Assembly: GCA_016180645.1 (NCBI GenBank)
Contig: JACPAV010000031.1
Coordinates: 1 to 37,435 of the forward strand
Direction: 5' to 3'
DNA length: 37,435 nt
DNA from: Nitrospirota bacterium
Lineage (GTDB): Bacteria > JACPQY01
In this document: one piece after another, positions 16,837 through 29,040 of the stretch
Position numbering within the stretch: the first letter of the stretch is position 1
Layout of the letters: every line of letters begins with the position of its first letter
The notes under the pieces: model-generated
What the model saw: only the letters and a program-made list of their open reading frames with translations
What the model was told of the DNA's origin: nothing
Database searches by the model: none
Program-made: the position numbers and the translations under genes

Positions 16837-19434
16837 CTATTCCGGGGCTTTGAAATACCCCCGGTAGACCTCTCGGGCGCGGGCGAAATCTCTCAGACCC
16901 GAACTGATCGTCTGCCACATCGGGTCGGGCGACGACGCCAGCGCCTCGTATCCCTTCAATGCCTCCTTGGGGCTCTTGAGGAGTTCTTTGATGTAACTCA
17001 TGCGATACTGGGCCCATTCGCCTTTCTCCCCCTTCGAAGAGAGACGGTAGGCCTCTTCGTACGCCTTGAGCGCCGGCCCATACAGGCCGGCCATGTAGAA
17101 GCTGTCCGCAAGCTGGAAATGGGACTCCAGCACGGCGGGCGGCACTTCCCTGGATTTCTGTTTGGAGGCCAGCGCGAGCACGCTCACATAGGCCTCGGAA
17201 GCTTCCAGATATTTTTTCAGCGTGAAGAGCGAGTTCCCGATAAAGTAGAAGGCGGCGACGGCCCGGGGCGATTCGGGCTGGGCGACCAGGAACTGCCCCA
17301 GCGCGGCGATGGCCTCCGGGAATTTCCCTTGGTTGTACGTCGCTTCCCCAAGGGCGTAGAGCATCTCATTCCGGTATTTCCCGCTCGGAAAGAAATCAAG
17401 ATGCTTCTTGAGAATTTCCTCAGCGCGCGCAAAATCCCCTTCGCGCAGATAGGTGACTCCGATGAGATATCCACAATGCTCGTCCACTTCCTTGGTCGGC
17501 CATTTCTGGATCACGCGGTACAGGAACTCCCTCGCCTTGGCATACAGGCCCATTTCGTAGAAACTCTTGCCGAGCACGTACAGCACGTCCAAGTCGAACG
17601 CCCCTCGCAGGAAAGGCGATTCGATGTAGGAATCGTGCAGCTTGAGGACGGTCATGTAGTCGCCCGCCTCGTAGTAGTACCCGATGCCGTCTTTGAAGAT
17701 GTGGTACAGATCGCCCCTCGCCCCTTTCGCGAACCGGCCGTAGGGGAAGGTCTTCATCATTCTCTCCAACGCGCGGAGGGATTCGTCGTACCTGCGCTGC
17801 GTGAACATCAGGAGCGACAGTTTGTACAGCGCCGCTTCAGCCTGGGGCTGGAGAGGATGATGGCGGGCCACGCCGCGATAGATCGCTTCGGGGTTGACTT
17901 CATCGGTCGCCCACCACCCGCCGCGGAGCTTTGTGCGCACGGGCCGCTGGAGCGCGATGTCCGCGAGGCCAAGAAGCGCATAGCCGACGCTTTCGGACCC
18001 CTTGTACTGGCCTACCACTTTGGCATAAGCGTTCGCGGCGTTCGAGTAGTCCTTCTTCAGCGCGAGGACGTTGGCGATGCGGAGCTGCACCTCGTCCGCA
18101 AATTCGCGCCGGCCGTATTGCCCTTGGAGGTAAAAGAGGAGGGACAGCGCTTCATCGAAGAATTGCGTTTTCTCGAAGGCGAGAGCGAGCTTCAGCATCG
18201 CTTCGGGATGGAGCCGGATGAACCGCGGCCATCGCTTGTTCCCTTCGTTGTAAACGGTGAGGCTGTCTTCGTAGCGGCCGAGGATGACATCGAGGTCCGC
18301 CAGGCTGAAAATCGCCTCCGTCACTTGTTCGGCGTCGGGATGATCGTACACCACGCCCAAAAGGGTTTTCCGGCTGGAGTCGAACTCCCGAAGGTTGGCC
18401 TGCGACTTGGCCACCATGAGATCGACGCGGGGCCGGTAATCGCTGTCCGGATACTGTTCGCGGAAGAAGGCGCCCATGCCGAGGACGTAGGTGTTGAACC
18501 CGAGATACTGCGCCATTTCGATGATGCGGTAGTACCCGTGAGCCGCCAGGGGGGACGAGGGGAACCGAAGGGTCGCGTCGCGAAATGCGTTGTCCGCCAA
18601 CCGGTAGTAGAGTTTGTATCGGCGCGGCCGGCCTGAATTCTGATCCGCCCGTCCGATGCGGAAGAGGCACTCGCCCATGATGTAGAGTGCGGGTCCCGCC
18701 GTGGAGCTGTTGGGATACTTCTGAAGGAGAAACGCGAGCGTCTCCGTGGCCGGACCGCAGGAACCGCGGCGGAAGGCGGAGTAGCCGCGCTGGAAGACGG
18801 CGGCGTCGGCAAATCCCGGCGTGGGGCCGGTTGACGCTTTCTCGCCGCCGGGAATGGGCGGCGGCATGCCCGGCGCCTGGGCGACCCCGGCGTCCGGCTC
18901 CGCTTCCGGTTCGACGGAAGGCTTCCCGGCCAGACCCGCGACGATCGAGTAGACTTTTCGGAGCGGCCCCGTGATCGCGTCCAGGACTTTCGCCATAAAG
19001 CCCTTGTGGATTTCCTCCTTGGACGGCTCGGCGACCTTGACTTCCCGTCCGGGCTCCTTCTTCTTCGGCTCCTCCTTGGCCTTCGCGTCCTTCGTCTCGG
19101 CGGCCGCCTTTTCCTTGCCGGCCTTTTTCTCCTTGCCCTCGTCTTTCTTCTTGGCGGTCTTCTTGCCTTTCTTCTCCTCCTTCTTGCCCGCCTTCTTGGG
19201 TTCGCTTTCTCCGGACTCCGATTTCCCGAATAGCCGCGTGATGCTCCGCCGGATGACTTTGAAGATCCCGCCCTCTTCCTTGTGTTTGAAGTCGACGTCC
19301 TCCTCGGGAAGGATGACTTCGACGGGCGGAACGGCTTTGTGATGGTTGTTCTTCGGCTCGGCGGCGTGGAGAGCCTCGACGCGCGCGGCGAGGATGAGCG
19401 CCAAAATCAGTGCGAAGCGGGCCGGACGCAGCAT
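16837..19434 (-). CDS. Exported tetratricopeptide-repeat protein with a Lys/Glu-rich N-terminal linker
   Basis: Signal MLRPARFALILALILAARVEA; many TPR/YbgF-like repeats (YP.S...A.Y..G). Confidence 0.88.
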   Translation of the reverse strand: MLRPARFALILALILAARVEALHAAEPKNNHHKAVPPVEVILPEEDVDFKHKEEGGIFKVIRRSITRLFGKSESGESEPKKAGKKEEKKGKKTAKKKDEGKEKKAGKEKAAAETKDAKAKEEPKKKEPGREVKVAEPSKEEIHKGFMAKVLDAITGPLRKVYSIVAGLAGKPSVEPEAEPDAGVAQAPGMPPPIPGGEKASTGPTPGFADAAVFQRGYSAFRRGSCGPATETLAFLLQKYPNSSTAGPALYIMGECLFRIGRADQNSGRPRRYKLYYRLADNAFRDATLRFPSSPLAAHGYYRIIEMAQYLGFNTYVLGMGAFFREQYPDSDYRPRVDLMVAKSQANLREFDSSRKTLLGVVYDHPDAEQVTEAIFSLADLDVILGRYEDSLTVYNEGNKRWPRFIRLHPEAMLKLALAFEKTQFFDEALSLLFYLQGQYGRREFADEVQLRIANVLALKKDYSNAANAYAKVVGQYKGSESVGYALLGLADIALQRPVRTKLRGGWWATDEVNPEAIYRGVARHHPLQPQAEAALYKLSLLMFTQRRYDESLRALERMMKTFPYGRFAKGARGDLYHIFKDGIGYYYEAGDYMTVLKLHDSYIESPFLRGAFDLDVLYVLGKSFYEMGLYAKAREFLYRVIQKWPTKEVDEHCGYLIGVTYLREGDFARAEEILKKHLDFFPSGKYRNEMLYALGEATYNQGKFPEAIAALGQFLVAQPESPRAVAAFYFIGNSLFTLKKYLEASEAYVSVLALASKQKSREVPPAVLESHFQLADSFYMAGLYGPALKAYEEAYRLSSKGEKGEWAQYRMSYIKELLKSPKEALKGYEALASSPDPMWQTISSGLRDFARAREVYRGYFKAPE

Positions 19435-19438
19435 CGGA

Positions 19439-19882
19439 TCAGGACGCCCGATCCAGGTAGACTCCGCGGCGGGCCGGAATCCCGTAGGCCCCTTGAGCCT
19501 TGTTCCGGCGAGATCGGACTCGGGCGAGGTCCTCATGCACGGAAGTTTTCTTTGTTTTCATCCGCTTTTCAACCTCTTTGTCCAGGTGGAGCTGTTCCGC
19601 AAGCATGAGGGAAAGCATCTCACGATGCTCCTTCAGGGGTGAGACGGAAGCCTCTCGCAATGATTCGGGGTATGCATCGCCCAGGATTCCGGCGATGCGG
19701 GACTCCACGCGCTGGATTTTCTTGATCACACGACCCCGCCGGCGCACGCCGAAAAGGAGACGGAGGTCATCGTCCGCAGCCATCGATTCCAGCATGGTTT
19801 TCGTCGCATTGAGCAGCGCACGGTAGTAGAGAATCTCCAGCCGGAGATTTCTCTTGAGCAATGGCGGTTCCCCTTGTGGCAT
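19439..19882 (-). CDS. FliT/FlgN-like flagellar chaperone
   Basis: Helical 147-aa protein ending AY...GVYLDRAS; heads the flagellar block. Confidence 0.55.
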   Translation of the reverse strand: MPQGEPPLLKRNLRLEILYYRALLNATKTMLESMAADDDLRLLFGVRRRGRVIKKIQRVESRIAGILGDAYPESLREASVSPLKEHREMLSLMLAEQLHLDKEVEKRMKTKKTSVHEDLARVRSRRNKAQGAYGIPARRGVYLDRAS

Positions 19883-19956: not shown

Positions 19957-20028
19957 TACATTTACACACAGACCTTCACCTCTTTCTGAAGATGATCGGC
20001 GATTTTGAGAAAAGACTTGAAATTCGGA

Positions 20029-20182
20029 CGCAGGCTGAAGCCTGCGGCTACCAGGAGCTACCGAGAGCTGCCAAGAGCGCAGGTCCATGGTAGGCGCAGG
20101 CCATGGTCCATGCCGTGCCATCCGTGGCACGGCGACATATCATGGCCCCATTCCCTCCGTGGCATGGGGCTTTACGCCTGCG
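20029..20182. repeat. GTAG REPs, one with nested CATCCGTG-loop hairpins
   Basis: CGCAGGCTGAAGCCTGCGGCTAC at 20029-20051; GTAGGCGCAGG...[GCCGTGCCATCCGTGGCACGGC]...TTTACGCCTGCG at 20090-20182. Confidence 0.75.
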
Positions 20183-20243
20183 GGGCCGCGCCAGGGCTCC
20201 AATTCCGCTTTACTCGAAACGGATGATTTGCTACGTTCGCCGA

Positions 20244-20807
20244 ATGACACCCAAAGAATTTTTCGAGAACACTTTGCCCTCTCTATTCAAGGGCGTGGCG
20301 GGCGGACAGCCTGAGCTTCAGCAGATCACCGGCGAGATGGAGATCGTGCTGCCGGAAGGCGGCACGTGGACGCTCGCGCTGGACAAAGGAAATCTGATCA
20401 CGAAGGAAGCCGCCGCGACCAATCCGATCGTTTCATTCACGCTATCCAGGCGGGATTGGGACCGCCTGATGCAAGGCGGAAGTTTCATGCCGATCGGTGC
20501 CGCGCCCGGTGGTGGAGCCAATCCCTTCAAGATGTCCCCCGCCCGTTTTGAAAAAGTGAAAATGCTCAAGGGCGAGCTGGTTTTTCATATCACCGAGCCA
20601 GGCGGCGAGGCACAAGACACGGTAATCCGGTTCAATCCGAAACAGGGAACCGGACCCCGCACGGAACTCGAGATGAATTCCGGCGACCTCAAGGATCTCT
20701 CAGAGGGAAAGGCCAATCCCCAACAGCTTTTCATGCAGGGAAAAATGCGCATCAAGGGCGACATGGCCTTCGCGATGCAGATCGGCTCCCTGGCCATGAT
20801 GGCCTGA
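20244..20807 (+). CDS. Tandem SCP2 sterol/lipid-binding domain protein
   Basis: GGTWTLALDKG; GKANPQQLFMQGKMRIKGDMAFAMQI. Confidence 0.85.
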   Translation: MTPKEFFENTLPSLFKGVAGGQPELQQITGEMEIVLPEGGTWTLALDKGNLITKEAAATNPIVSFTLSRRDWDRLMQGGSFMPIGAAPGGGANPFKMSPARFEKVKMLKGELVFHITEPGGEAQDTVIRFNPKQGTGPRTELEMNSGDLKDLSEGKANPQQLFMQGKMRIKGDMAFAMQIGSLAMMA

Positions 20808-20870
20808 GCTTCCTGGCCGACCACACTCGCACTCACCAGGCAAACCGGCAGCGACTCGACCCGCCCCTTT

Positions 20871-22553
20871 CTACGGGGTGACAGAACGCTCAATCGTGTT
20901 CGAATCGCGGCGGCCGGAGGCGTCGCGGGCGCGGACGACGAAGTAGGTGGTCGACCGGGGGTTGAATTTCATCAACGTGTAGCTTATTGCGCCTGGGACG
21001 GTTTCGTACGCCGCCCAGAAGTCGGCCGGGCAATAGCCGGATTTCGAAGATTGGCAGATTTCGTAGACGATCTGGTCGACCGGCGTGGCATCGTCCGACG
21101 CCGTTGCCCACTCCAGGACGACGTCTCCGTTCCCGGAGAGCCTGGCGCTTTGCAGGCCGCCGAACTGAGGAGCTTGGGGATCGGATTCGACAGCCGGTGA
21201 GTTCGGTTGGGAGGATGGAGCGATCGGCTCCGATGCCGTTGGAGTCGCGGTTTCGCTGGAAGGTGGGGGATCAACGGAGGTGGGTGGCGGCGGCTCGGTA
21301 GGAGTCGGCGTCGGTGGAGATCCGGGCATCGTCACCGTCATCTCCTTCACGTTCGCATCCCGATTTCCCGCTTCGTCCGTGGCGCGGACGACGAAGAAGT
21401 ATTTCGCTCCCGGCGTCAGGTCTTTGGCCGTGATCGTCTTTGCATACGTCGAGCCGGCCGGCTTGAAGTCCTTAACGCACTCTCCTTCGGTGGTCGAAAC
21501 GCAGTACGCGTACCAGATCGATCCGGCAGCAGACAGATCGTCCGTCGCCCCCTCCCAGGAGAGGACCACTTCCGTCGTGGAGTTGGAATTCGCTTCCTTG
21601 ATTCCACCGAAGGTCGGCGGGGTTGTATCCGCGCGCAACTTGCCGGCGGGAGATCGGATCCGGATCGACTTTTCGATCGCGTTCGACTCGATATTGCCCG
21701 ATTCGTCGCGCGCGCGGACAACGAAGAAATATTCTCCGGGGTTGTCCGGCTTGACTCTGTAGATCTGCTCGCCGGGCCGCGTTTTGTAGGCGGAGACAAA
21801 ATTGGACCCGCAGGCGCCTTTCTCCAGCGATTGGCAGATTTCATAGGCCATCCCGATGCTCGGGCTGACCTCGTCCGACGCCGGTTTCCACGTCAGAACG
21901 ATTTCGGCGCCGACGAATACTTCTTCGTACGGAGGGCATTCCGGCGGAGATTGGATCGTATCCAATCCCTCGAAATGGGCCGGAACGGTGTCCCCCGCAC
22001 CGAGCGCCCTCGGGAATTGCGTCAATTCGGAAAGCCGAAACGCCTCGTCGAAGATCTTCAATTGATGCGCCGTGGCTTCCGGCTGACCGTTGATCGGGCT
22101 CGGCGTGGTCATCGCCACCCGCGCGCCGTATTCGACCTTCAGGCGAATAATCGTTACGTTCATCGAATCCCGCCAGACCCGCTTCATGCTTTGGCCGATG
22201 ACAAACGGTTCGGCGAGGACATTGGGCGATTCGCGATAGTTCGCCGATGGGTGAATCCGGAGCTCATCGAGCGCGAACTGACTTTCATTGCTGAGAATCA
22301 TTTCCGGGGGCGGAGGCGGCGGCTCGATCAGCTTGCACACGGGCTTGGGGGGTGGGCCGACTGCCTCCTCTCCTGATGGAGCGTACGATCCCTCATACTT
22401 GTCCGAGCACGCGGCAAAGAGGAGGGAGAGGGCCAAACCCGATACCGCAACCTGGGTAGCGACCGCCCGGTAGCCGCACCCTTTACGGGTGCGTCCTCCA
22501 CGCAGGCTGAAGCCTGCGGCTACCAGACCATCCATCCGGTCGTCAAAACACAT
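20871..22553 (-). CDS. Lipoprotein with shared N-terminal domain and three Cys-containing fibronectin-III repeats
   Basis: Lipobox FAA-C; repeats P.FGG...L.W..A.DD...YEIC...YFFVVRARD.SGN; Pro/Thr linker. Confidence 0.85.
   Translation of the reverse strand: MCFDDRMDGLVAAGFSLRGGRTRKGCGYRAVATQVAVSGLALSLLFAACSDKYEGSYAPSGEEAVGPPPKPVCKLIEPPPPPPEMILSNESQFALDELRIHPSANYRESPNVLAEPFVIGQSMKRVWRDSMNVTIIRLKVEYGARVAMTTPSPINGQPEATAHQLKIFDEAFRLSELTQFPRALGAGDTVPAHFEGLDTIQSPPECPPYEEVFVGAEIVLTWKPASDEVSPSIGMAYEICQSLEKGACGSNFVSAYKTRPGEQIYRVKPDNPGEYFFVVRARDESGNIESNAIEKSIRIRSPAGKLRADTTPPTFGGIKEANSNSTTEVVLSWEGATDDLSAAGSIWYAYCVSTTEGECVKDFKPAGSTYAKTITAKDLTPGAKYFFVVRATDEAGNRDANVKEMTVTMPGSPPTPTPTEPPPPTSVDPPPSSETATPTASEPIAPSSQPNSPAVESDPQAPQFGGLQSARLSGNGDVVLEWATASDDATPVDQIVYEICQSSKSGYCPADFWAAYETVPGAISYTLMKFNPRSTTYFVVRARDASGRRDSNTIERSVTP
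22470..22523. repeat. 54-bp inverted REP doublet inside the 5' end of the lipoprotein ORF
   Basis: GTAGCCGCACCCTTTACGGGTGCG-tcctcca-CGCAGGCTGAAGCCTGCGGCTAC; right unit identical to 20029-20051. Confidence 0.88.
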
Positions 22554-24084
22554 ACGACACGGAGAGCGTGAAATCGGTCGTGTCGAGCGAGGCGGCGCCG
22601 ACGAACGAGCGCGGGCGCTCGAAAATGTCTTTCGCGGGGTTGTATTTCACGGGCGCGCGGAACTCGATGGGGTTCGGGTAGTCGAACTTCGGGTAGTAGC
22701 GCCATTCGGCAGTCCCGCTCACGGAGAGATGAATTTTCGGCACGCCGAACCCAAGCCGCCCCGCCACCGCGCCCGAACCGAGCCAGATCCATTGCGAGCC
22801 GATTTCCCGATGCTGCGCCAGTCGCACATCCGCCCACCGACGTTCAAGGACATTGGCGCCGCCCTCCGCCGTCAGGAACGAACGGACCGGGCCGAGCCGT
22901 AGGACCAGATCGAAACCGGCCCGCTGCCCCACGGCGGTGGACCGCAGATTGAGCCGGTAAGTGTTCGGCTCGGTGATGTCGATTTCCACTCCGGAATCGG
23001 GATCGGAAAAAAGGCCCTGCATGTCGGTCGTGTCCGGACGCTGCACCACCGGCACCCGCTCTCGGAAATCCGCGATGTCGATCGTCTGGTCCATGAAATC
23101 GACCGTTGGATAGATGAAAAGCCCCGTCTTCTTCGGGGTAGAATAGAGCGAGATTCGATAGCCGCTCGACCGCGCGTTCCCGCTCGCAACCACGCGGGAG
23201 CCGCTGCCGTCCTCGTCGCGAATCGAGGACGACACGCCGGCCAGCCCCTTGAAGGTGGTCAGCCGCACGCCGCCGAGCGCGCCGACGTAATTCCTCCACG
23301 CCGCTCTCCTGGGATCATCCTTCTCCTCCTTCTGGATGAGGTAGACCGTTCCATCCTGTTCCAAACTGATCCGGCGTTCCTCGGGCGCCGCCATCCCGGT
23401 CGCCTTCACAATACCGTAGATCTGACGCCATCCCGTCCCGGCGGCCACCGGTTCGGCGTAAGGCGCCTTCAGCGCCTCGAGAAATTCGCCGTGTTTGGCC
23501 GCGAGCGCCCTCGCCTGGGCACGGAACGTTTCGTGGTAGGCCCGGCGAAACGCATCCTCGATGTTCCGCCGGAGGAACCACGACCAGAACAGGATGTCAT
23601 AGGGCGCCTCGACCTCGGTGAAACTCGAATAAATTTCACGCCCGATGGGGTCAATGGCCCCCACTTTCATTCGCACAGTCACACTCCCCCACTCCGGTGT
23701 GAACGGCTGGTAGACGATCAAGCCGGGGAATACCGCGAGGGCATCCAGGAGCCACGTGCGCCGTGATTTGATTTTCGTTTCTATCCGCGCGTTCAACCAC
23801 AAGCCGTTCCCGGGAGGTCCTCCTTTCGCGCCCTTGAATCCGCAATGGGCCGTCACGTAGGTGAGGAACATATCCGACAGCATGCCGACCCTGTAGATGT
23901 CCCACTCCTTCAGACTCGCCACCTCGAAATCGCCAATGGCCACGGGGATGGCTTCGCAGTTTTCCTCAAGGACCATGTCTTCCGAGGAGGGATAACGCGG
24001 GATCATGACCCGGTGTGCGAATTGACAGGCGGGGAGCAGGAGACCGATCAGGCCCACAATCGCGAAGGAGCGGCTACACGCCAT
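22543..24084 (-). CDS. Lipoprotein with an N-terminal domain fused to a putative outer-membrane beta-barrel (paralog B)
   Basis: MACSRSFAIVGLIGLLLPA-C lipobox; C-terminal ~260 aa align with 26463-27401; ends FTLSVSYVF. Confidence 0.75.
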   Translation of the reverse strand: MACSRSFAIVGLIGLLLPACQFAHRVMIPRYPSSEDMVLEENCEAIPVAIGDFEVASLKEWDIYRVGMLSDMFLTYVTAHCGFKGAKGGPPGNGLWLNARIETKIKSRRTWLLDALAVFPGLIVYQPFTPEWGSVTVRMKVGAIDPIGREIYSSFTEVEAPYDILFWSWFLRRNIEDAFRRAYHETFRAQARALAAKHGEFLEALKAPYAEPVAAGTGWRQIYGIVKATGMAAPEERRISLEQDGTVYLIQKEEKDDPRRAAWRNYVGALGGVRLTTFKGLAGVSSSIRDEDGSGSRVVASGNARSSGYRISLYSTPKKTGLFIYPTVDFMDQTIDIADFRERVPVVQRPDTTDMQGLFSDPDSGVEIDITEPNTYRLNLRSTAVGQRAGFDLVLRLGPVRSFLTAEGGANVLERRWADVRLAQHREIGSQWIWLGSGAVAGRLGFGVPKIHLSVSGTAEWRYYPKFDYPNPIEFRAPVKYNPAKDIFERPRSFVGAASLDTTDFTLSVSYVF

Positions 24085-24095
24085 GCGATCTCCGA

Positions 24096-24111
24096 TGCAA
24101 GCGGCGTGCCA
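24096..24111 (-). promoter_or_regulatory. sigma54 -24/-12 promoter
   Basis: TGGCACGCCGCTTGCA, exact consensus, 11 nt before ATG 24084. Confidence 0.8.
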
Positions 24112-24122
24112 CCGGAAATGGG

Positions 24123-24980
24123 CTACACGACCTGAAAACCTTTTTCCGTAATGTCGAATTCCAGCTCTTCGGCTCGATGGTTGCTCCCCCGATGTTTCAG
24201 AATGCGCAGCGAGCGACACCGCGTTTCGTGCTCCTCTCTCCACCCCATGAGGATCAATGTGGAGGCGTTGTATTCGGGCCCGTCGAGCGGAATGGGTGCG
24301 CGAATGAGATCTTCCAGCATGATCTCCCGCGCCGTGACGAGCAGAACGGTCGTCACCGCTTTCTCGTCGTAGCGATGCGCGTCCACAAAAGATTTCTTGA
24401 ATCTGAAATTCTCCCGCAGGGCCTCCCGGGCCAGCCACTCCGGTTCCAGCCGGATGTACTGCTCGAATACGGTCTCGATGAACTCCGCCTGCGAGGAGGG
24501 CCGTTCCCCCAGCGGCTCGATGCCATCCACGATCACCCGCTTCCGCCCCTGGGCGAAACCCTGGTAGAGAAAGGCCGCGGTGAGCTGGAGCCGGGTTTGG
24601 AGCTGAAGGGCCCATCTCTCCGGGTCCTTGGTGACACCCAGTCCCAGTCCCGCGAAGGGGCGATACAAGTCGAACGAAGCCGGCCGCGATCGAAGGTTGC
24701 GCGCTCCGGGCAAGCCGTCTTTCTCCGTGATCGACCAGCGATGGAGCCTCCGGGCGATCGCCTTCTCGCCTTGATCGTCGCCTCGGGAAGCCAGATCCAG
24801 GATCAATCCCGGATGCCGCTCCTGATTCCGCCCGGCGTTCGCGATGCTCATGCCGAGATGCGATTTCCCGATCCCCGTGGCGCCCACGATGACCGCCAGC
24901 GTGCCCGGCACCAGCCCGCCGCCAAGAGCCTCATCCAGGGCCGCCACTCCCGTGCGGTACCTCGTGGAGCGGCTCCCCAT
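24123..24980 (-). CDS. Single-domain KaiC/RAD55-like RecA-superfamily ATPase
   Basis: TGVAALDEALGGGL, GATGIGKS, RVIVDG, RSLRILKHRGS; TAATG overlap with the upstream gene. Confidence 0.88.
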   Translation of the reverse strand: MGSRSTRYRTGVAALDEALGGGLVPGTLAVIVGATGIGKSHLGMSIANAGRNQERHPGLILDLASRGDDQGEKAIARRLHRWSITEKDGLPGARNLRSRPASFDLYRPFAGLGLGVTKDPERWALQLQTRLQLTAAFLYQGFAQGRKRVIVDGIEPLGERPSSQAEFIETVFEQYIRLEPEWLAREALRENFRFKKSFVDAHRYDEKAVTTVLLVTAREIMLEDLIRAPIPLDGPEYNASTLILMGWREEHETRCRSLRILKHRGSNHRAEELEFDITEKGFQVV

Positions 24981-26473
24981 TACGGAATCCCCGGGATGGC
25001 CATCGGAGTCGGGCGGCAGTCGTCCACGCCGCACCGATGTTGAACGAACTCGGCGAGTTGTCCGAGGGTATTGAGACCCCAACAGTACACCATCGCGTTT
25101 TCAAGACGGGCACAGGTATGCGCGACGCCCGTGGATACCGCGATCACACCCCCGAGCCCCGACACGGTCACAACGCCCTCCCTCTCGGCCCTGGCGCCGT
25201 TTCCCAGTTGTCCGAACCCGTTCCAACCCCAGCAGGCGACCGTTCCATCCGAGAGCAGCGCACAGGTGTAGTCGCTGCCTGAAGACAGCGATCGCACTCC
25301 GGCCAGCCCTGTGACGTCGACCGGGGATCTCCCGCAGGTGTCCGCTCCCCGGCATTCCGCAGGCGTGCCCCTGCCGTTCCCCAATTGCCCGTAGGAGGAG
25401 TCTCCCCAGCATCTTACGTTTCCCTCGGAGACGACGGCGCAGGTGTGGGCCGCTCCAGCCGCAACGGAGACCGCATCCGTAAGTTCGGATACTTCGGTCG
25501 GGATCGATCGAGCTTCGGTTGTCCCGTCCCCCAGTTGACCTGTAGCGTTGAATCCCCAGCAGGAGACCCGCCCTCCGCGCCGCAGGGCGCAGGAGTGATA
25601 GGCCCCGGCGGAGATGGCCTCAGCATCCGACAGCCCCGTCACGGCAACGGGCAGGTATTGATCCTCCGTCGTACCATCGCCGAGTTGACCGGCGAAATTC
25701 GATCCCCAGCAACGCACGGTTCCCTCCGTCTTGATGGCGCACACGTGCTTTTCTCCGGCGGCGAGCGCGATGACGTCGCCGATATCGACAGGGATGGCCG
25801 TCATCTCGGAGGGGATTCGCGTGCCGCTGCCGAGTCCCTCGATCGTGGTCCCCCAGCAACGCACATTCCGATCCGCCGTGAGGGCACAGGTAAACCCATC
25901 GCCCGCCGCGAGGGCGGTGAGCGTCGAAACCCCGTCGATCTTCCTAGGACTGAAGGGATCTTTCGGCCGGTCCGGTCTCGGTTTCCAGGAGTAGTCGGCG
26001 CCCCAGCACTTGACGAATCCATCCATGTCCGCGGCGCAGGCATGGTAGGCGCCGGCGGCGAGCGCCGTCGGGATCGCCGGAGGGATGTAGACGCTGGCGA
26101 GCCGGAACGATTCGTCAAAGACGGCCAGCTCCGAAAGGTACCCCGGTTTGAGCGCGCCCACCGGGGTGGCGGTCGTGAACGCGAGCACTTTGCCGTTCCG
26201 CACTTTCTCCCTCATGACCGTAACGTACCGCGTTTTGTCCCAGTTCAGCGTCAACTGGTCGTCCACCCCCATGTCGCCGTTCAGGACATTCCGGCTTTTC
26301 CGGTAATCAAGGTCCGGGTGGAGCCGGAGTTCCCGCAAAGGAAACTGGCTCGAATTGCGGATGATGAGCTTCGGCGGTTCGAGGGGTCGGCCTTTCTCCT
26401 CGGGCTCAAATTCGACGCACGAAACGATCACGAGCGCCACAATCGCGAGAGGCAAGCACGATCTAGAAAACAT
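24980..26473 (-). CDS. Lipoprotein with shared N-terminal domain and RCC1/BLIP-II beta-propeller
   Basis: Lipobox IVS-C; about seven repeats AG..HtCA...G.V.CWG.N..GQLG. Confidence 0.9.
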   Translation of the reverse strand: MFSRSCLPLAIVALVIVSCVEFEPEEKGRPLEPPKLIIRNSSQFPLRELRLHPDLDYRKSRNVLNGDMGVDDQLTLNWDKTRYVTVMREKVRNGKVLAFTTATPVGALKPGYLSELAVFDESFRLASVYIPPAIPTALAAGAYHACAADMDGFVKCWGADYSWKPRPDRPKDPFSPRKIDGVSTLTALAAGDGFTCALTADRNVRCWGTTIEGLGSGTRIPSEMTAIPVDIGDVIALAAGEKHVCAIKTEGTVRCWGSNFAGQLGDGTTEDQYLPVAVTGLSDAEAISAGAYHSCALRRGGRVSCWGFNATGQLGDGTTEARSIPTEVSELTDAVSVAAGAAHTCAVVSEGNVRCWGDSSYGQLGNGRGTPAECRGADTCGRSPVDVTGLAGVRSLSSGSDYTCALLSDGTVACWGWNGFGQLGNGARAEREGVVTVSGLGGVIAVSTGVAHTCARLENAMVYCWGLNTLGQLAEFVQHRCGVDDCRPTPMAIPGIP

Positions 26474-27401
26474 ACGAGACGGAGACCGTGACTTCCGCCG
26501 TGTCGAGCGCGGCCCCGCGCACAAATTCCCGCGGACGCTCGTTGATTTCCTTTTGGGGGTCGTAGGCAATCGCGCCCCGAAACTCGACCGGGTTGGGATA
26601 GTCGAACTGGGGATAGGTCTTCAACTCCCCCGTGGCGCTCAGTGCGAAATGCGCCTTGGGGAAAGTGAACCCCACGCGGCCGGCGCCGACGAACGAACCC
26701 AACGCCTTCAGCCCCGCACCGCGCTCCACGCGATCGCCGAGCCTCACGATGGCGTGTCGCGCCTCGACGAGATTCGCGCCGGCTTCCACCGTCGCATACA
26801 TCTCGATCCAACTGCTCCCGGCCACGAAATCGAACCCCGCCCTCTGGCCGATGCCGAGCGACCGGAGGTAGAGGCGGTAAGTATTGGGGTCCGTGATGTC
26901 GACGGTTTCACCCGTCTCCGGATCGGTCACAATCGCCGGGATCTCCTCCGCACTGGGCAGATCGATGGGAGGCACGGCTTCGCGGAAATCCGCGATCTCG
27001 ATCGTCTGGGCCAGAAAATCCGCCGTGGGGTAGATGAAAAATCCGCTGGAGCGCGGCGCGGAGAACAGCGACACCCGATATCCATCCGTTCGGGCATCGC
27101 CGCTGGCCACGTCTCGGGTACCGCCCTCCTCCGATCGAACCGACGAGGAGACCTGCGCCCAGCCCTGGAACACCGTGACTTTCAGTCCTCCCAGCGCGCC
27201 GAGGTATTTTCCCCACAGCGAACGCGGCGCGGTCTCCTTCCGGGGAGTCCAGAGGACTTGGAAGCCTTGCCCTGTCGGCGTGATGTCTGGTTTGGCTTCC
27301 GTTTCGGCCTCGGCTCGCTCCGCGGGGGTGGCATCCGAAAGGTCTGAGAAAGCCAGGAAGCAGACGAGAAAGAAGGCGAACAGGCGAAATAAACCCCGCA
27401 T
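26463..27401 (-). CDS. Exported putative outer-membrane beta-barrel protein (paralog A)
   Basis: Signal MRGLFRLFAFFLVCFLAFSDLSDA; amphipathic strands; ends VTVSVSYVF. Confidence 0.7.
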   Translation of the reverse strand: MRGLFRLFAFFLVCFLAFSDLSDATPAERAEAETEAKPDITPTGQGFQVLWTPRKETAPRSLWGKYLGALGGLKVTVFQGWAQVSSSVRSEEGGTRDVASGDARTDGYRVSLFSAPRSSGFFIYPTADFLAQTIEIADFREAVPPIDLPSAEEIPAIVTDPETGETVDITDPNTYRLYLRSLGIGQRAGFDFVAGSSWIEMYATVEAGANLVEARHAIVRLGDRVERGAGLKALGSFVGAGRVGFTFPKAHFALSATGELKTYPQFDYPNPVEFRGAIAYDPQKEINERPREFVRGAALDTAEVTVSVSYVF

Positions 27402-27475
27402 CCGTGGAAGATTATCGCATCGCGCATCAAGGGGCAACAGACCCGATGCGGAACCAGAGATTCCCCAACTTCCTT

Positions 27476-27539
27476 GAGATGCTGAAACAAGTCCAGCATG
27501 ACATCCCGTTTTGTCACCCTGAACTTGGTTCAGGGTCTC
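27476..27539. repeat. Inverted doublet of GTCA-type palindromic repeat
   Basis: GAGATGCTGAAACAAGTCCAGCATGACA ... TGTCACCCTGAACTTGGTTCAGGGTCTC. Confidence 0.8.
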
Positions 27540-27644
27540 AAAATGCCTTGCGTCCGTGTTCAGGTACTAGGATAGGCTCTTATTCACCGTACACCTCTCA
27601 CCACCTTATCGGAGCATCGGGACCCATGAACTCGGTTCCCAAGG

Positions 27645-28178
27645 TTACTCCGTATAGAACACCACTACCTTGCAGGGCTTGTTCGCGGCGTTCGCACCCA
27701 TCATGTCGATAAAAATAGCGGATTCATCGACCTTTCCCACAACCGTCATTTGCCGACCAGAGCTTATGTCAAGGTACGAAATAAAGTCGAATAGAATTTT
27801 CTGGTAGTCCAAACCGTGTGTCACCCTGAGATTACCGCTGCCATCGACGGTGCCCGACAGTAATTTCCACCTGATACCGCCATTTTGCGTCGAGATGGCG
27901 CCCCCAACATCCATAGCCGCCGACGGACTGGACGTTCCTATCCCCACGTTGCCATCGGTGTAGACGGCATTCGCGCCGCTCTTGGTCCAATTCGGGAGGC
28001 CCTCGATGGCCTTCTTGAGATTTCCGATTGATGTATTCAGGTCGTCCGCGACAAGGGCTTCGCCGGTCGTCCAAGTCTTGACCGTTCCGACCGTCACGGC
28101 CAGGGCAACGGTTCCGATCACGCCCACCGCGATCCCCGCGCCGAGCAGCAGACCTTTCACGAACACTTGAATTCTCAT
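27645..28178 (-). CDS. Exported fibre/adhesin-like protein
   Basis: AGGAGGT RBS; hydrophobic N-terminus; WTTGEALVADDLN helix; GNVGIGTSSP fibre repeat. Confidence 0.7.
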   Translation of the reverse strand: MRIQVFVKGLLLGAGIAVGVIGTVALAVTVGTVKTWTTGEALVADDLNTSIGNLKKAIEGLPNWTKSGANAVYTDGNVGIGTSSPSAAMDVGGAISTQNGGIRWKLLSGTVDGSGNLRVTHGLDYQKILFDFISYLDISSGRQMTVVGKVDESAIFIDMMGANAANKPCKVVVFYTE

Positions 28179-28198
28179 CGGACACCTCCTCGATTTCC

Positions 28199-29040
28199 TC
28201 ATCCCAGAATGCACGAGCCAATCTTCGACGACCCCACAATGCACGTGGATTTTGCGTCCGGTTCGGACGGATGCGCGGGGACATCCGGCGCGGAAGGGTT
28301 GTCTGATAATTCCGCCATCGGAGTCGCCGACACCTCGCCCGACTTGTCGCTCTCGCTCCGGGAATTGAGAGCTGAAACCGCAAAGAAGTACACCTGACCG
28401 TTGCTGAGTCCGGTCAGCGTCGCGTTCAACGAACCCGCTATGCTCACCGGTGAGGCGCCCTCCTTTGCTCCCTTGCCAATGTAGGGTCCTCCCGTTTTCG
28501 CGCCATAGTAGACTCGGTATTCAGCCGCACCCGCCGACGCCTCCCATGATAGAGCCACGGAGGCGTTTCCCGTTCGCGCCTGAAGGTTCTTGGGCGGCTC
28601 AGGCGCCGCCGTGATCGCCTCAAGCGCAACGCTGATTTCCGGAGAGGCCGGCCCTTCCCCATCGGGCGCGGTCGCCGAAACCTCGAAAAAGTACGTGAGG
28701 TTCGGTTCCAAGCCTTCGATCAGAATCTCGACACGTTTCCAACGTCGGCCGGTGAATTTCCGATCGAAAGCCCCTTGCCCCTTCGCGCGGCGCTTTTCAT
28801 GTCGTAGTAGAACATGTACCCGCGCGCCCCCGCTACAAGGTCCCACGAAAGCGTCACGTTGTTCTCGCCGATGACGGATTGGATGTTCTGCGGCGCGGGC
28901 AACCCCTCGACAAGCCTTTTCTCGGCTTCCGCGGAGCAAGCGGCGAATGTCAGCGCGAATAGGAGGAGGAGGAATCTAGGGTATGACTGTGAGTGAGTGA
29001 GTGAGTGCAAGAAGCGAACCACCAGACTATTGGTGCGCAC
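28199..29040 (-). pseudogene. Lipoprotein with two FN3 domains and a 1-bp frameshift
   Basis: Lipobox FAA-C and FN3 start in ORF 28720-29040; continues LIEGLEPNLTYFFEVSA in ORF 28199-28939; one extra base at TTC-TGA (~28722) restores the frame. Confidence 0.8.

Follow-up and report, generated by a model that had tools for sequence, protein, structure and literature searches.

A conserved and duplicated gene pair for a predicted outer-membrane barrel and its lipoprotein partner in a groundwater bacterium

A contig of 37,435 nucleotides from a Nitrospirota bacterium (JACPAV010000031.1 of assembly GCA_016180645.1), which we refer to as the window, carries two copies of a gene pair. In each pair a gene for an exported protein with a C-terminal barrel domain (B1, B2) is followed by a gene for a lipoprotein (L1, L2), and the two lipoproteins have one domain in common (the L domain). 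We conclude that the pair is real and conserved, an outer-membrane module of two genes that has no name so far. Barrel and lipoprotein very probably form a physical 1:1 complex. The fuller reading, namely that this is a dedicated complex which holds the lipoprotein on the cell surface and displays the attached RCC1 and FN3 (fibronectin type III) modules there, is one for which we find the evidence evenly balanced.

We began with the relationship of the two barrel proteins to each other. Their C-terminal 259 residues align with 137 identities (53%, E 3e-94) and both proteins end in SVSYVF. An earlier reading of this DNA, made from its letters without database searches (the sequence-only reading), had described B1 and B2 as paralogous exported proteins with a set of common motifs and this same ending, and every motif that it quoted is present in the alignment. 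It overlooked that B2 is a lipoprotein with an additional domain of ~250 amino acids at the N-terminus (the N-domain), which is missing in B1. B1 and B2 have no match in Pfam (E<=0.01) or NCBIfam, the barrel-family profiles match no PDB sequence at E<=1, and the N-domain of B2 has no Pfam, NCBIfam or PDB sequence match. Word-index homologue searches were weak, giving five proteins for B1, the query alone for the L1 domain and six proteins for the L-domain profile, and the size of the barrel family was visible only by exhaustive profile search. That search of 1,835,955,588 representatives found 239 barrel-family proteins at E<=0.001, 116 of them at E<=1e-30. Among the 151 relatives listed, 69 have the barrel together with a B2-type N-domain, 69 have the barrel without it, and 13 have the N-domain followed by another C-terminus. 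The barrel domain, which is C-terminal in 138 of these relatives, reaches the end of the protein in 126, of which 120 have F, Y or W as their last residue. On B2 itself the profiles score 1e-93 for the barrel and 2e-62 for the N-domain (residues 289-494 of the open frame). Most members of the family begin with a lipoprotein-type signal. Among 34 relatives scanned, the barrel domain was also found behind HEAT repeats (two proteins) or an FGE-sulfatase domain (two), and the N-domain without a barrel precedes CsgG/LpoB/TolB_N-like domains (four) or a caspase domain (one). These alternative fusions, all in metagenomic relatives (P0050, P0102, P0097, P0115, P0127, P0136, P0139, P0141 and P0140), suggest that both halves behave as independent modules. 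The only name obtained by cluster look-up was 'hypothetical protein'; in the ESM Atlas, B2 had only leads below 0.9, to clusters named outer-membrane beta-barrel or CsgG, and for the L domain there was nothing of use.

The AlphaFold2 (AF2) model of B1 has eight strands of 18-24 residues at a predicted local distance difference test score (pLDDT) of 61.6, which is a moderate confidence. A Foldseek search with this model gave 25 matches at E<=0.001, all of them outer-membrane proteins (OMPs), with a probability of 1.0 for OmpT, OpcA, Pla, Ail, OmpA and OmpX; EspP and NalP rank only at E 3e-3 to 5e-3. In VIA-align the model scored Z 14.4 to a designed transmembrane barrel (6x9z), 14.2 to the OprF N-barrel, 14.0 to PagL and 14.0 to NspA, the last with 155 residues superposed at a root-mean-square deviation of 2.8, compared with at most 10.8 for soluble eight-stranded barrels. 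We also calculated Kyte-Doolittle hydropathy (KD) over 33 relatives. Within the 10 strand residues nearest to the termini and short turns there is an alternating hydrophobic face with a mean KD of 1.85, and the distal halves of the strands are less hydrophobic (mean KD 0.68), a difference that holds in seven of the eight strands. Hydrophobicity at the terminus end suggests that the membrane belt lies there and that the strands project beyond it. Together with the Z values of 14.0-14.4 and the terminal aromatic residue of 120 of 126 relatives, these results support the assignment of the shared domain as an eight-stranded OmpA/NspA-like membrane beta-barrel, and the sequence-only reading was right to see a membrane barrel with a terminal aromatic in it. 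The genome has six Omp85/BamA matches, the best at 3.1e-59.

The two lipoproteins align directly after the lipobox with 40 identities in 107 positions (37%, E 1e-19) and diverge beyond. L1 continues as an RCC1 propeller (PF25390 at 6.6e-65, PF13540 at 1.1e-60) and L2 as FN3 modules (fn3 at 1.3e-9, fn3_4 at 1.1e-9), so that the alignment, of ~107 amino acids, and the Pfam matches agree with what had been read from the letters, a shared post-lipobox domain followed by RCC1 or FN3. The L-domain profile matches L2 at 2.3e-38. Modelled from ten sequences, the L domain is predicted with confidence to be a seven-stranded beta-sandwich of ~95 residues (pLDDT 85.7). None of the ten members scanned had a Pfam match in this domain and it has no meaningful PDB sequence match; both shared domains, neither of which the sequence-only reading recognised, are therefore uncharacterised. 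In a search with this fold no Foldseek hit reached E<=0.001, and VIA-align peaked at Z 8.1, within the common range. The matches are generic (transthyretin-like, PepT extracellular domain, cholesterol-dependent cytolysin domain 4, TssJ and AlgF C-domain) and we claim no specific structural relative for the L domain.

We then asked how the two families are distributed. Barrel genes were located at nine loci: two in the window, two in related Myxococcales metagenome-assembled genomes (L007, L008), two in other Myxococcota genomes (L013 in G128, L019 in G720) and three on metagenome contigs (L016-L018); a narrow-alignment search for related loci gave two genome loci and three short metagenome contigs. 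An L-domain lipoprotein gene adjoins the barrel gene in all eight loci with a readable flank, which cover at least six deeply diverged lineages; the ninth, L016, ends 78 bp after the barrel. The partner gene lies just downstream on the same strand in six loci and is convergent in two (L007, L008). In five genomes, all six L-domain matches are at barrel loci and the copy numbers of the two families are equal (2, 1, 1, 1, 1). In a sample of 301 Myxococcota genomes, with scoring limited to 8-12 first-look candidates in each, the barrel and L profiles match the same two genomes and none has one alone. Strict co-occurrence of the two domains, proposed earlier as a check, is thus what these loci, genomes and the Myxococcota sample display. 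The family itself is rare. The barrel was found in none of 40 and none of 400 broadly sampled genomes, and it was not found in the only other genome (84% complete) of the GTDB phylum of the window. It is present in 2 of 48 genomes of the order of G128 and in 2 of 3 of the order of G041. The GTDB phylum of the window consists of two species-level genomes.

Such a rare and patchy family (0 of 400 broad genomes, 2 of 301 Myxococcota) would suit a cassette that moved as a block, in which the two genes are mere neighbours without any physical relation, mobile or specific to a lineage, and for which a predicted complex would be a false positive. This explanation is highly unlikely in our judgement. 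Adjacency is kept while the barrels of different lineages are only 27-41% identical, in no fewer than six lineages and under two gene orientations, and copy numbers are equal in the five genomes. The complex prediction, for which we modelled residues 60-312 of B1 together with the L domain of L1, also argues against it. The interaction prediction score from aligned errors (ipSAE) was 0.67, 0.80 and 0.84 in three runs (median 0.80), compared with 0.00 for the best of three controls. The runs share at least 79% of their contacts, and the pLDDT of the partner is at least 74. In calibration, 58 of 80 solved complexes and 2 of 110 mismatched pairs attained the complex-score mark, so that a false positive does occur at this mark; the calibration is rough here, our own alignments having been used.

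In the predicted complex the barrel contributes loops 2, 3 and 4 (after strands 3, 5 and 7) with residues 143-173, 221-224 and 273-293, and the lipoprotein contributes residues 23-25, 37-40, 69-87 and 99-109. The tightest contacts are strand-like, between residues 154-160 of the barrel and residues 79-84 and 104-107 of the lipoprotein. The signature motifs of both families, which are their most conserved parts, fall in this interface: ...VP / DP.TG, FDYPNPVEF and ERPR on the barrel side and N.SQ, R.KV..G..IAF and FD..FRL on the L side. Interface positions are more conserved than the rest, with p 0.019 for the barrel and 0.014 for the L domain, which is a modest enrichment.

The side of the membrane on which the contact takes place decides between the two most serious readings. 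The two termini and the short turns of known outer-membrane barrels point towards the periplasm. In the model, the contact loops are at the end of the barrel opposite to the termini, ~10 strand residues beyond the hydrophobic belt. With this topology rule, the position of the loops at the far end would place the L domain on the cell-surface side. The main rival is a periplasmic partner, in which the lipoprotein sits in the inner leaflet of the outer membrane and binds the barrel from the periplasm, so that RCC1 and FN3 are periplasmic and the pair is an envelope scaffold. Inner-leaflet placement by Lol sorting is the default fate of outer-membrane lipoproteins. The tether is short, with 15-39 residues from the lipid Cys to the N-x-S/T-Q motif of the L domain, so that lipid and domain should be on the same side. 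No known surface-export component was found, a search of the window's own genome for DUF560 having given no match, although the control of that search also matched none of 14 genomes, so that this negative carries no information; gene linkage and the complex score would fit equally if the contact loops were periplasmic. This rival has, however, to accommodate predicted contacts that are all in three loops far from both termini, and a hydrophobic belt beside the termini and short turns, at what is the periplasmic rim in known OMPs, which leaves the contact loops outside the membrane. On this evidence we consider the periplasmic complex unlikely, while taking it seriously. The short tether fits the surface placement as well, and so do the residues after the lipid Cys, which may bear on sorting. 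Positions +2 to +6 of the L proteins hold on average 1.2 acidic and 0.1 basic residues (n=10, acidic in 9 of 10), and the same positions of the barrel lipoproteins with N-domain hold 0.04 acidic and 1.2 basic residues (n=47, typically CxAxR). This contrast may be a sorting difference; it is reminiscent of the acidic export signal of Bacteroidota surface lipoproteins.

A further possibility is that the barrel does more than hold its partner. The sequence-only reading had suggested that the shared domain docks on, or is translocated by, the cognate barrel. Docking is supported by the controlled complex prediction; translocation is not, since the barrel has eight strands and no match to a translocator family. 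As a dedicated translocator of the Slam type (type XI secretion system, T11SS) or of the TpsB type, the barrel would recognise the shared domain and export interchangeable adhesins through itself. Two-partner secretion (TpsB) uses an Omp85-type barrel of 16 strands with POTRA domains (ShlB) and a cargo with a two-partner secretion (TPS) domain, and autotransporters (type V) have passenger and 12-stranded barrel on one polypeptide. In Slam cargo the conserved eight-stranded domain is C-terminal. The genes of barrel and lipoprotein are indeed adjacent as for Slam (8 of 8 readable loci), and 185 of 353 Slam homologues are beside a lipobox gene (PMC5449769, partial text). In this genome there are, moreover, two different passengers behind one conserved domain. 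An eight-stranded barrel has no lumen for a polypeptide, however, and what defines Slam is a TPR domain at the N-terminus with a DUF560 barrel of 14 strands (PMC5449769, partial text). Families of the DUF560 (PF04575), TPR, POTRA, ShlB and autotransporter kinds were matched neither in B1 and B2 (E<=0.01) nor in 33 relatives (E<=0.5). Omp85 gave no match in B1 and B2, nor did a TPS or haemagglutination domain in L1 and L2. RCC1 and FN3, unlike an autotransporter passenger, are on a separate lipoprotein.

The partners at other loci also speak against a translocator. The six complete adjacent partners outside the window have ~150-215 amino acids, that is, the domain and a short, often Pro-rich tail without passenger, and three further L relatives found by sequence (127-165 amino acids) have no passenger either. 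The partner at L019 is a 5' fragment cut by the contig end. The RCC1 and FN3 modules thus look like genome-specific additions to a partner subunit, and not like cargo of a targeting domain, and the idea of a system for the display of interchangeable adhesins does not survive these partners. The predicted contact, finally, is a static docking on loops. We regard a translocator as the least probable of the explanations considered, and very improbable in itself. The likeness to Slam and T11SS is that an OMP barrel gene lies beside a lipoprotein gene and that the lipoprotein reaches the surface (PMC5449769, partial text). An eight-stranded domain is common to Slam cargo (same source, partial text); the conserved domain here is instead a predicted N-terminal beta-sandwich, with nothing else in most partners.

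Among small barrels, the N-barrels of OmpA and OprF together with NspA, OmpX, Ail and PagL resemble the family in fold class (Z 13.2-14.2), in strands beyond the membrane and in the terminal aromatic. The Pfam families OmpA_membrane and OMP_b-brl, however, had no match in B1 and B2 (E<=0.01) or in 33 relatives (E<=0.5). The family here differs by a dedicated lipoprotein partner and by the many members that are lipoproteins with an N-domain. The loops are its most conserved part, while they are usually the most variable part in OmpA/OmpX-type families. LptD is a very large barrel which LptE plugs in its lumen; the eight-stranded barrel here has no room for this, and the predicted contact is on loops. 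SusCD and BtuB-BtuG are alike in that a surface lipoprotein stably caps the extracellular side of a barrel whose gene lies beside its own. Those barrels are 22-stranded TonB-dependent ligand importers, compared with an eight-stranded barrel without channel, and TonB_dep_Rec and Plug had no match in B1 and B2. With eight strands and no channel, the role of the barrel would be anchoring or coupling and not transport. BtuG, a lipoprotein of the cell surface, is described as forming stable complexes with BtuB (bioRxiv 10.1101/2022.11.17.516869, partial text). LptD-LptE shares with the present pair a barrel whose cognate lipoprotein is a needed structural partner (bioRxiv 10.1101/2025.04.10.648201, partial text). 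RcsF with OmpA, OmpC or OmpF is a lipoprotein held by a barrel, with a surface-exposed part and assembled by BAM (the machinery for beta-barrel assembly), and OmpA has eight strands (PMC4942254, bioRxiv 10.1101/823146 and PMC7553776, each in partial text). The partners of RcsF are general porins and OmpA, and not a dedicated barrel encoded next to it. The linker of RcsF reportedly passes through the barrel lumen and leaves its folded domain in the periplasm, whereas the L domain is predicted on the outer loops and contacts loops 2-4 only. RcsF has no sequence relation to the L proteins (no Pfam match). RcsF-OMP, the capped barrels of Bacteroidota and LptD-LptE appear to be the nearest working analogies, none of them with a dedicated eight-stranded barrel and a linked beta-sandwich partner. 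In the literature searched, a coverage that leaves out most subscription journals, we found no description of such a barrel-lipoprotein pair.

In the surface reading, each pair would encode a dedicated 1:1 outer-membrane complex. BAM would insert the eight-stranded OmpA/NspA-like barrel, whose long and unusually conserved loops would grip the beta-sandwich of the cognate L protein by strand-to-strand pairing. The lipoprotein would be on the cell-surface side, anchored by its own lipid and by the barrel, and the N-terminal extension of the barrel protein (the N-domain in the lipoprotein B2, HEAT or FGE-sulfatase in relatives) would stay periplasmic. Translational coupling, with the ATG inside TATGT, may provide equal amounts of the subunits for co-assembly. 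In most organisms the lipoprotein would be the docking domain and a short tail only; in this groundwater bacterium the module would have been duplicated and the tails extended with an RCC1 propeller or FN3 repeats, presented on the surface. More tentatively, and with our judgement leaning somewhat against it, the pair may be a route to the surface that was unknown until now. BAM would fold the barrel with its cognate lipoprotein, and the barrel would carry the beta-sandwich outward and clamp it in its conserved loops. With a periplasmic domain joined at the N-terminus of the barrel, the result would be a minimal connector across the outer membrane whose outer subunit is able to carry any binding module, here RCC1 or FN3. 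For Myxococcota and for the two-species groundwater phylum of the window we know of no surface-lipoprotein route.

Several points weigh against the surface reading. To our knowledge there is no route that would let an eight-stranded barrel deliver a lipoprotein to the outer leaflet, and still less a folded RCC1 propeller. The membrane side of the contact is inferred only from the general rule on termini and short turns of OMPs. The complex model covers the one pair of B1 with L1, the barrel model is of moderate confidence, and the enrichment of conservation at the interface is modest. The distances of barrels and L proteins are correlated (Mantel r 0.90, p 0.005), a correlation that is largely driven by kinship, mainly by the L007/L008 pair. 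In these same two loci the genes converge, so that the pair is not co-translated everywhere. A KaiC-like gene inside the operon is not explained by the proposed complex, and the start of L2 is uncertain, with a repeat element in its 5' end (both described below).

The way in which lipoproteins get to the cell surface and remain there is understood in few lineages, namely Proteobacteria (Slam), Enterobacteria (RcsF-OMP) and Bacteroidota (their export signal). Here two genes make up a compact system: a very small barrel and a lipoprotein domain of ~100 residues, strictly linked, whose binding at the outer loops is predicted with confidence. Should this prediction prove right, it would define two new protein families, a new kind of barrel-lipoprotein complex and a natural scaffold on which unrelated modules (a propeller, FN3 repeats) are hung on a docking domain. 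If the complex is periplasmic, it would still be a new envelope module, conserved and built on a barrel protein that is, unusually, lipidated.

The features of the locus can be seen in Table 1. Five tightly packed genes are all on the minus strand, in the order B1, L1, KaiC-like ATPase, B2 and L2. Both barrel/lipoprotein junctions read TCGTATGT, where the ATG of the lipoprotein lies within the Tyr-Val codons of the barrel with an 11-nt overlap. The ATG of L1 is within TAT-GTT of B1 and that of L2 within TAT-GTG of B2, as the sequence-only reading had it. The ATG of the ATPase overlaps the stop of L1 (TAATG), and its gene stands between the two pairs, 36 nt before B2. A cytoplasmic ATPase is thus placed inside an operon of envelope proteins and is translationally coupled to L1. 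The protein matches KaiC-type models of NCBIfam below cut-off only and has a weak mad8 match alone in PADLOC (8.9e-4).

Table 1. Features of the barrel-lipoprotein locus in the window.
Feature	Position	Strand	Description
B1	26463..27401	-	312 aa from MRGLF; signal peptide and barrel domain (residues ~60-312), ends SVSYVF; no N-domain
L1	24980..26473	-	497 aa; lipobox VIVSC, Cys19; L domain ~26042-26419, then RCC1 propeller to the C-terminus
KaiC/RadA-like single-domain ATPase	24123..24980	-	Walker A GATGIGKS; no signal peptide; PF06745 9.8e-14
B2	22543..24084	-	513 aa from MACSRSF; lipobox LLPAC; N-domain ~23323-24084 and barrel domain 22543-23322, ends SVSYVF
L2	20871..22553	-	560 aa; lipobox FAAC, Cys49 from ATG 22553; L domain ~21984-22412, FN3-like modules, Pro/Thr-rich linker
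REP-like palindromic repeat	22500..22526; second copy 20028-20054		22500-22526 copy within the signal peptide n-region of the L2 frame

The repeat element in the 5' end of L2 resembles repetitive extragenic palindromic (REP) sequences. Its two copies in the window are an exact direct repeat of 27 nt with a palindromic hairpin (GCAGGC...GCCTGC). The genome has 46 copies at <=2 mismatches, compared with none for the reversed control, and some copies have compensatory changes in the stem. The copy inside the L2 frame would specify the signal peptide's positively charged n-region, and the sole in-frame start after it is a TTG, nine codons before the Cys. The element together with this lone TTG makes the start of L2 less certain than that of L1.

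We also looked up the locus in Logan contigs. Those of four groundwater metagenome runs of one study carry 22469-29004 and 20125-22497 without any difference, and three of the four runs are possibly the source of the window DNA. The runs that carry the locus are groundwater metagenomes, and no RNA dataset is listed as carrying it. Contig depth is 5-9 fold higher at the REP-like spots. Apparent deletions at the contig joints 20052 and 22469 were rejected, as their sides have at most 29 letters with foreign letters between; we read them as other copies of the REP-like element.

At other barrel loci, L007:7747-8283 (+) and L016:1629-2168 (+), the barrel gene is overlapped at its start by another small gene, for a lipoprotein of 178-180 aa. 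We considered the Myxococcales gene of this kind upstream of the barrel as a split-off N-domain of B2 and found no evidence for this (BLASTP E 0.11, N-domain profile E 9.6).

Upstream of B1 in the window, an FN3 lipoprotein at 28199-29040 (-) is apparently split over two overlapping frames. The frame 28720-29040 has the lipobox and the start of an FN3 module, and the frame 28199-28939 has the rest of that module and a second FN3. Either a frameshift or a mistake of the assembly would explain the split; the Logan contigs show no difference there. A protein of 199 aa with an N-terminal membrane helix is encoded at 27645-28244 (-), ends 243 nt upstream of B1 and has no family match in Pfam, NCBIfam or PADLOC. 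In a tblastn search of the seven other barrel loci with this protein, the upstream FN3 protein, the KaiC-like protein and the N-domain of B2, none was found at E<=1. On the other side of the locus, 1.3 kb downstream of L2 and on the same strand, 16837-19536 (-) encodes a protein of 899 aa with a Lys/Glu-rich region, many TPR repeats and a YfiO/BamD-type match (PF13525, 4.8e-18).

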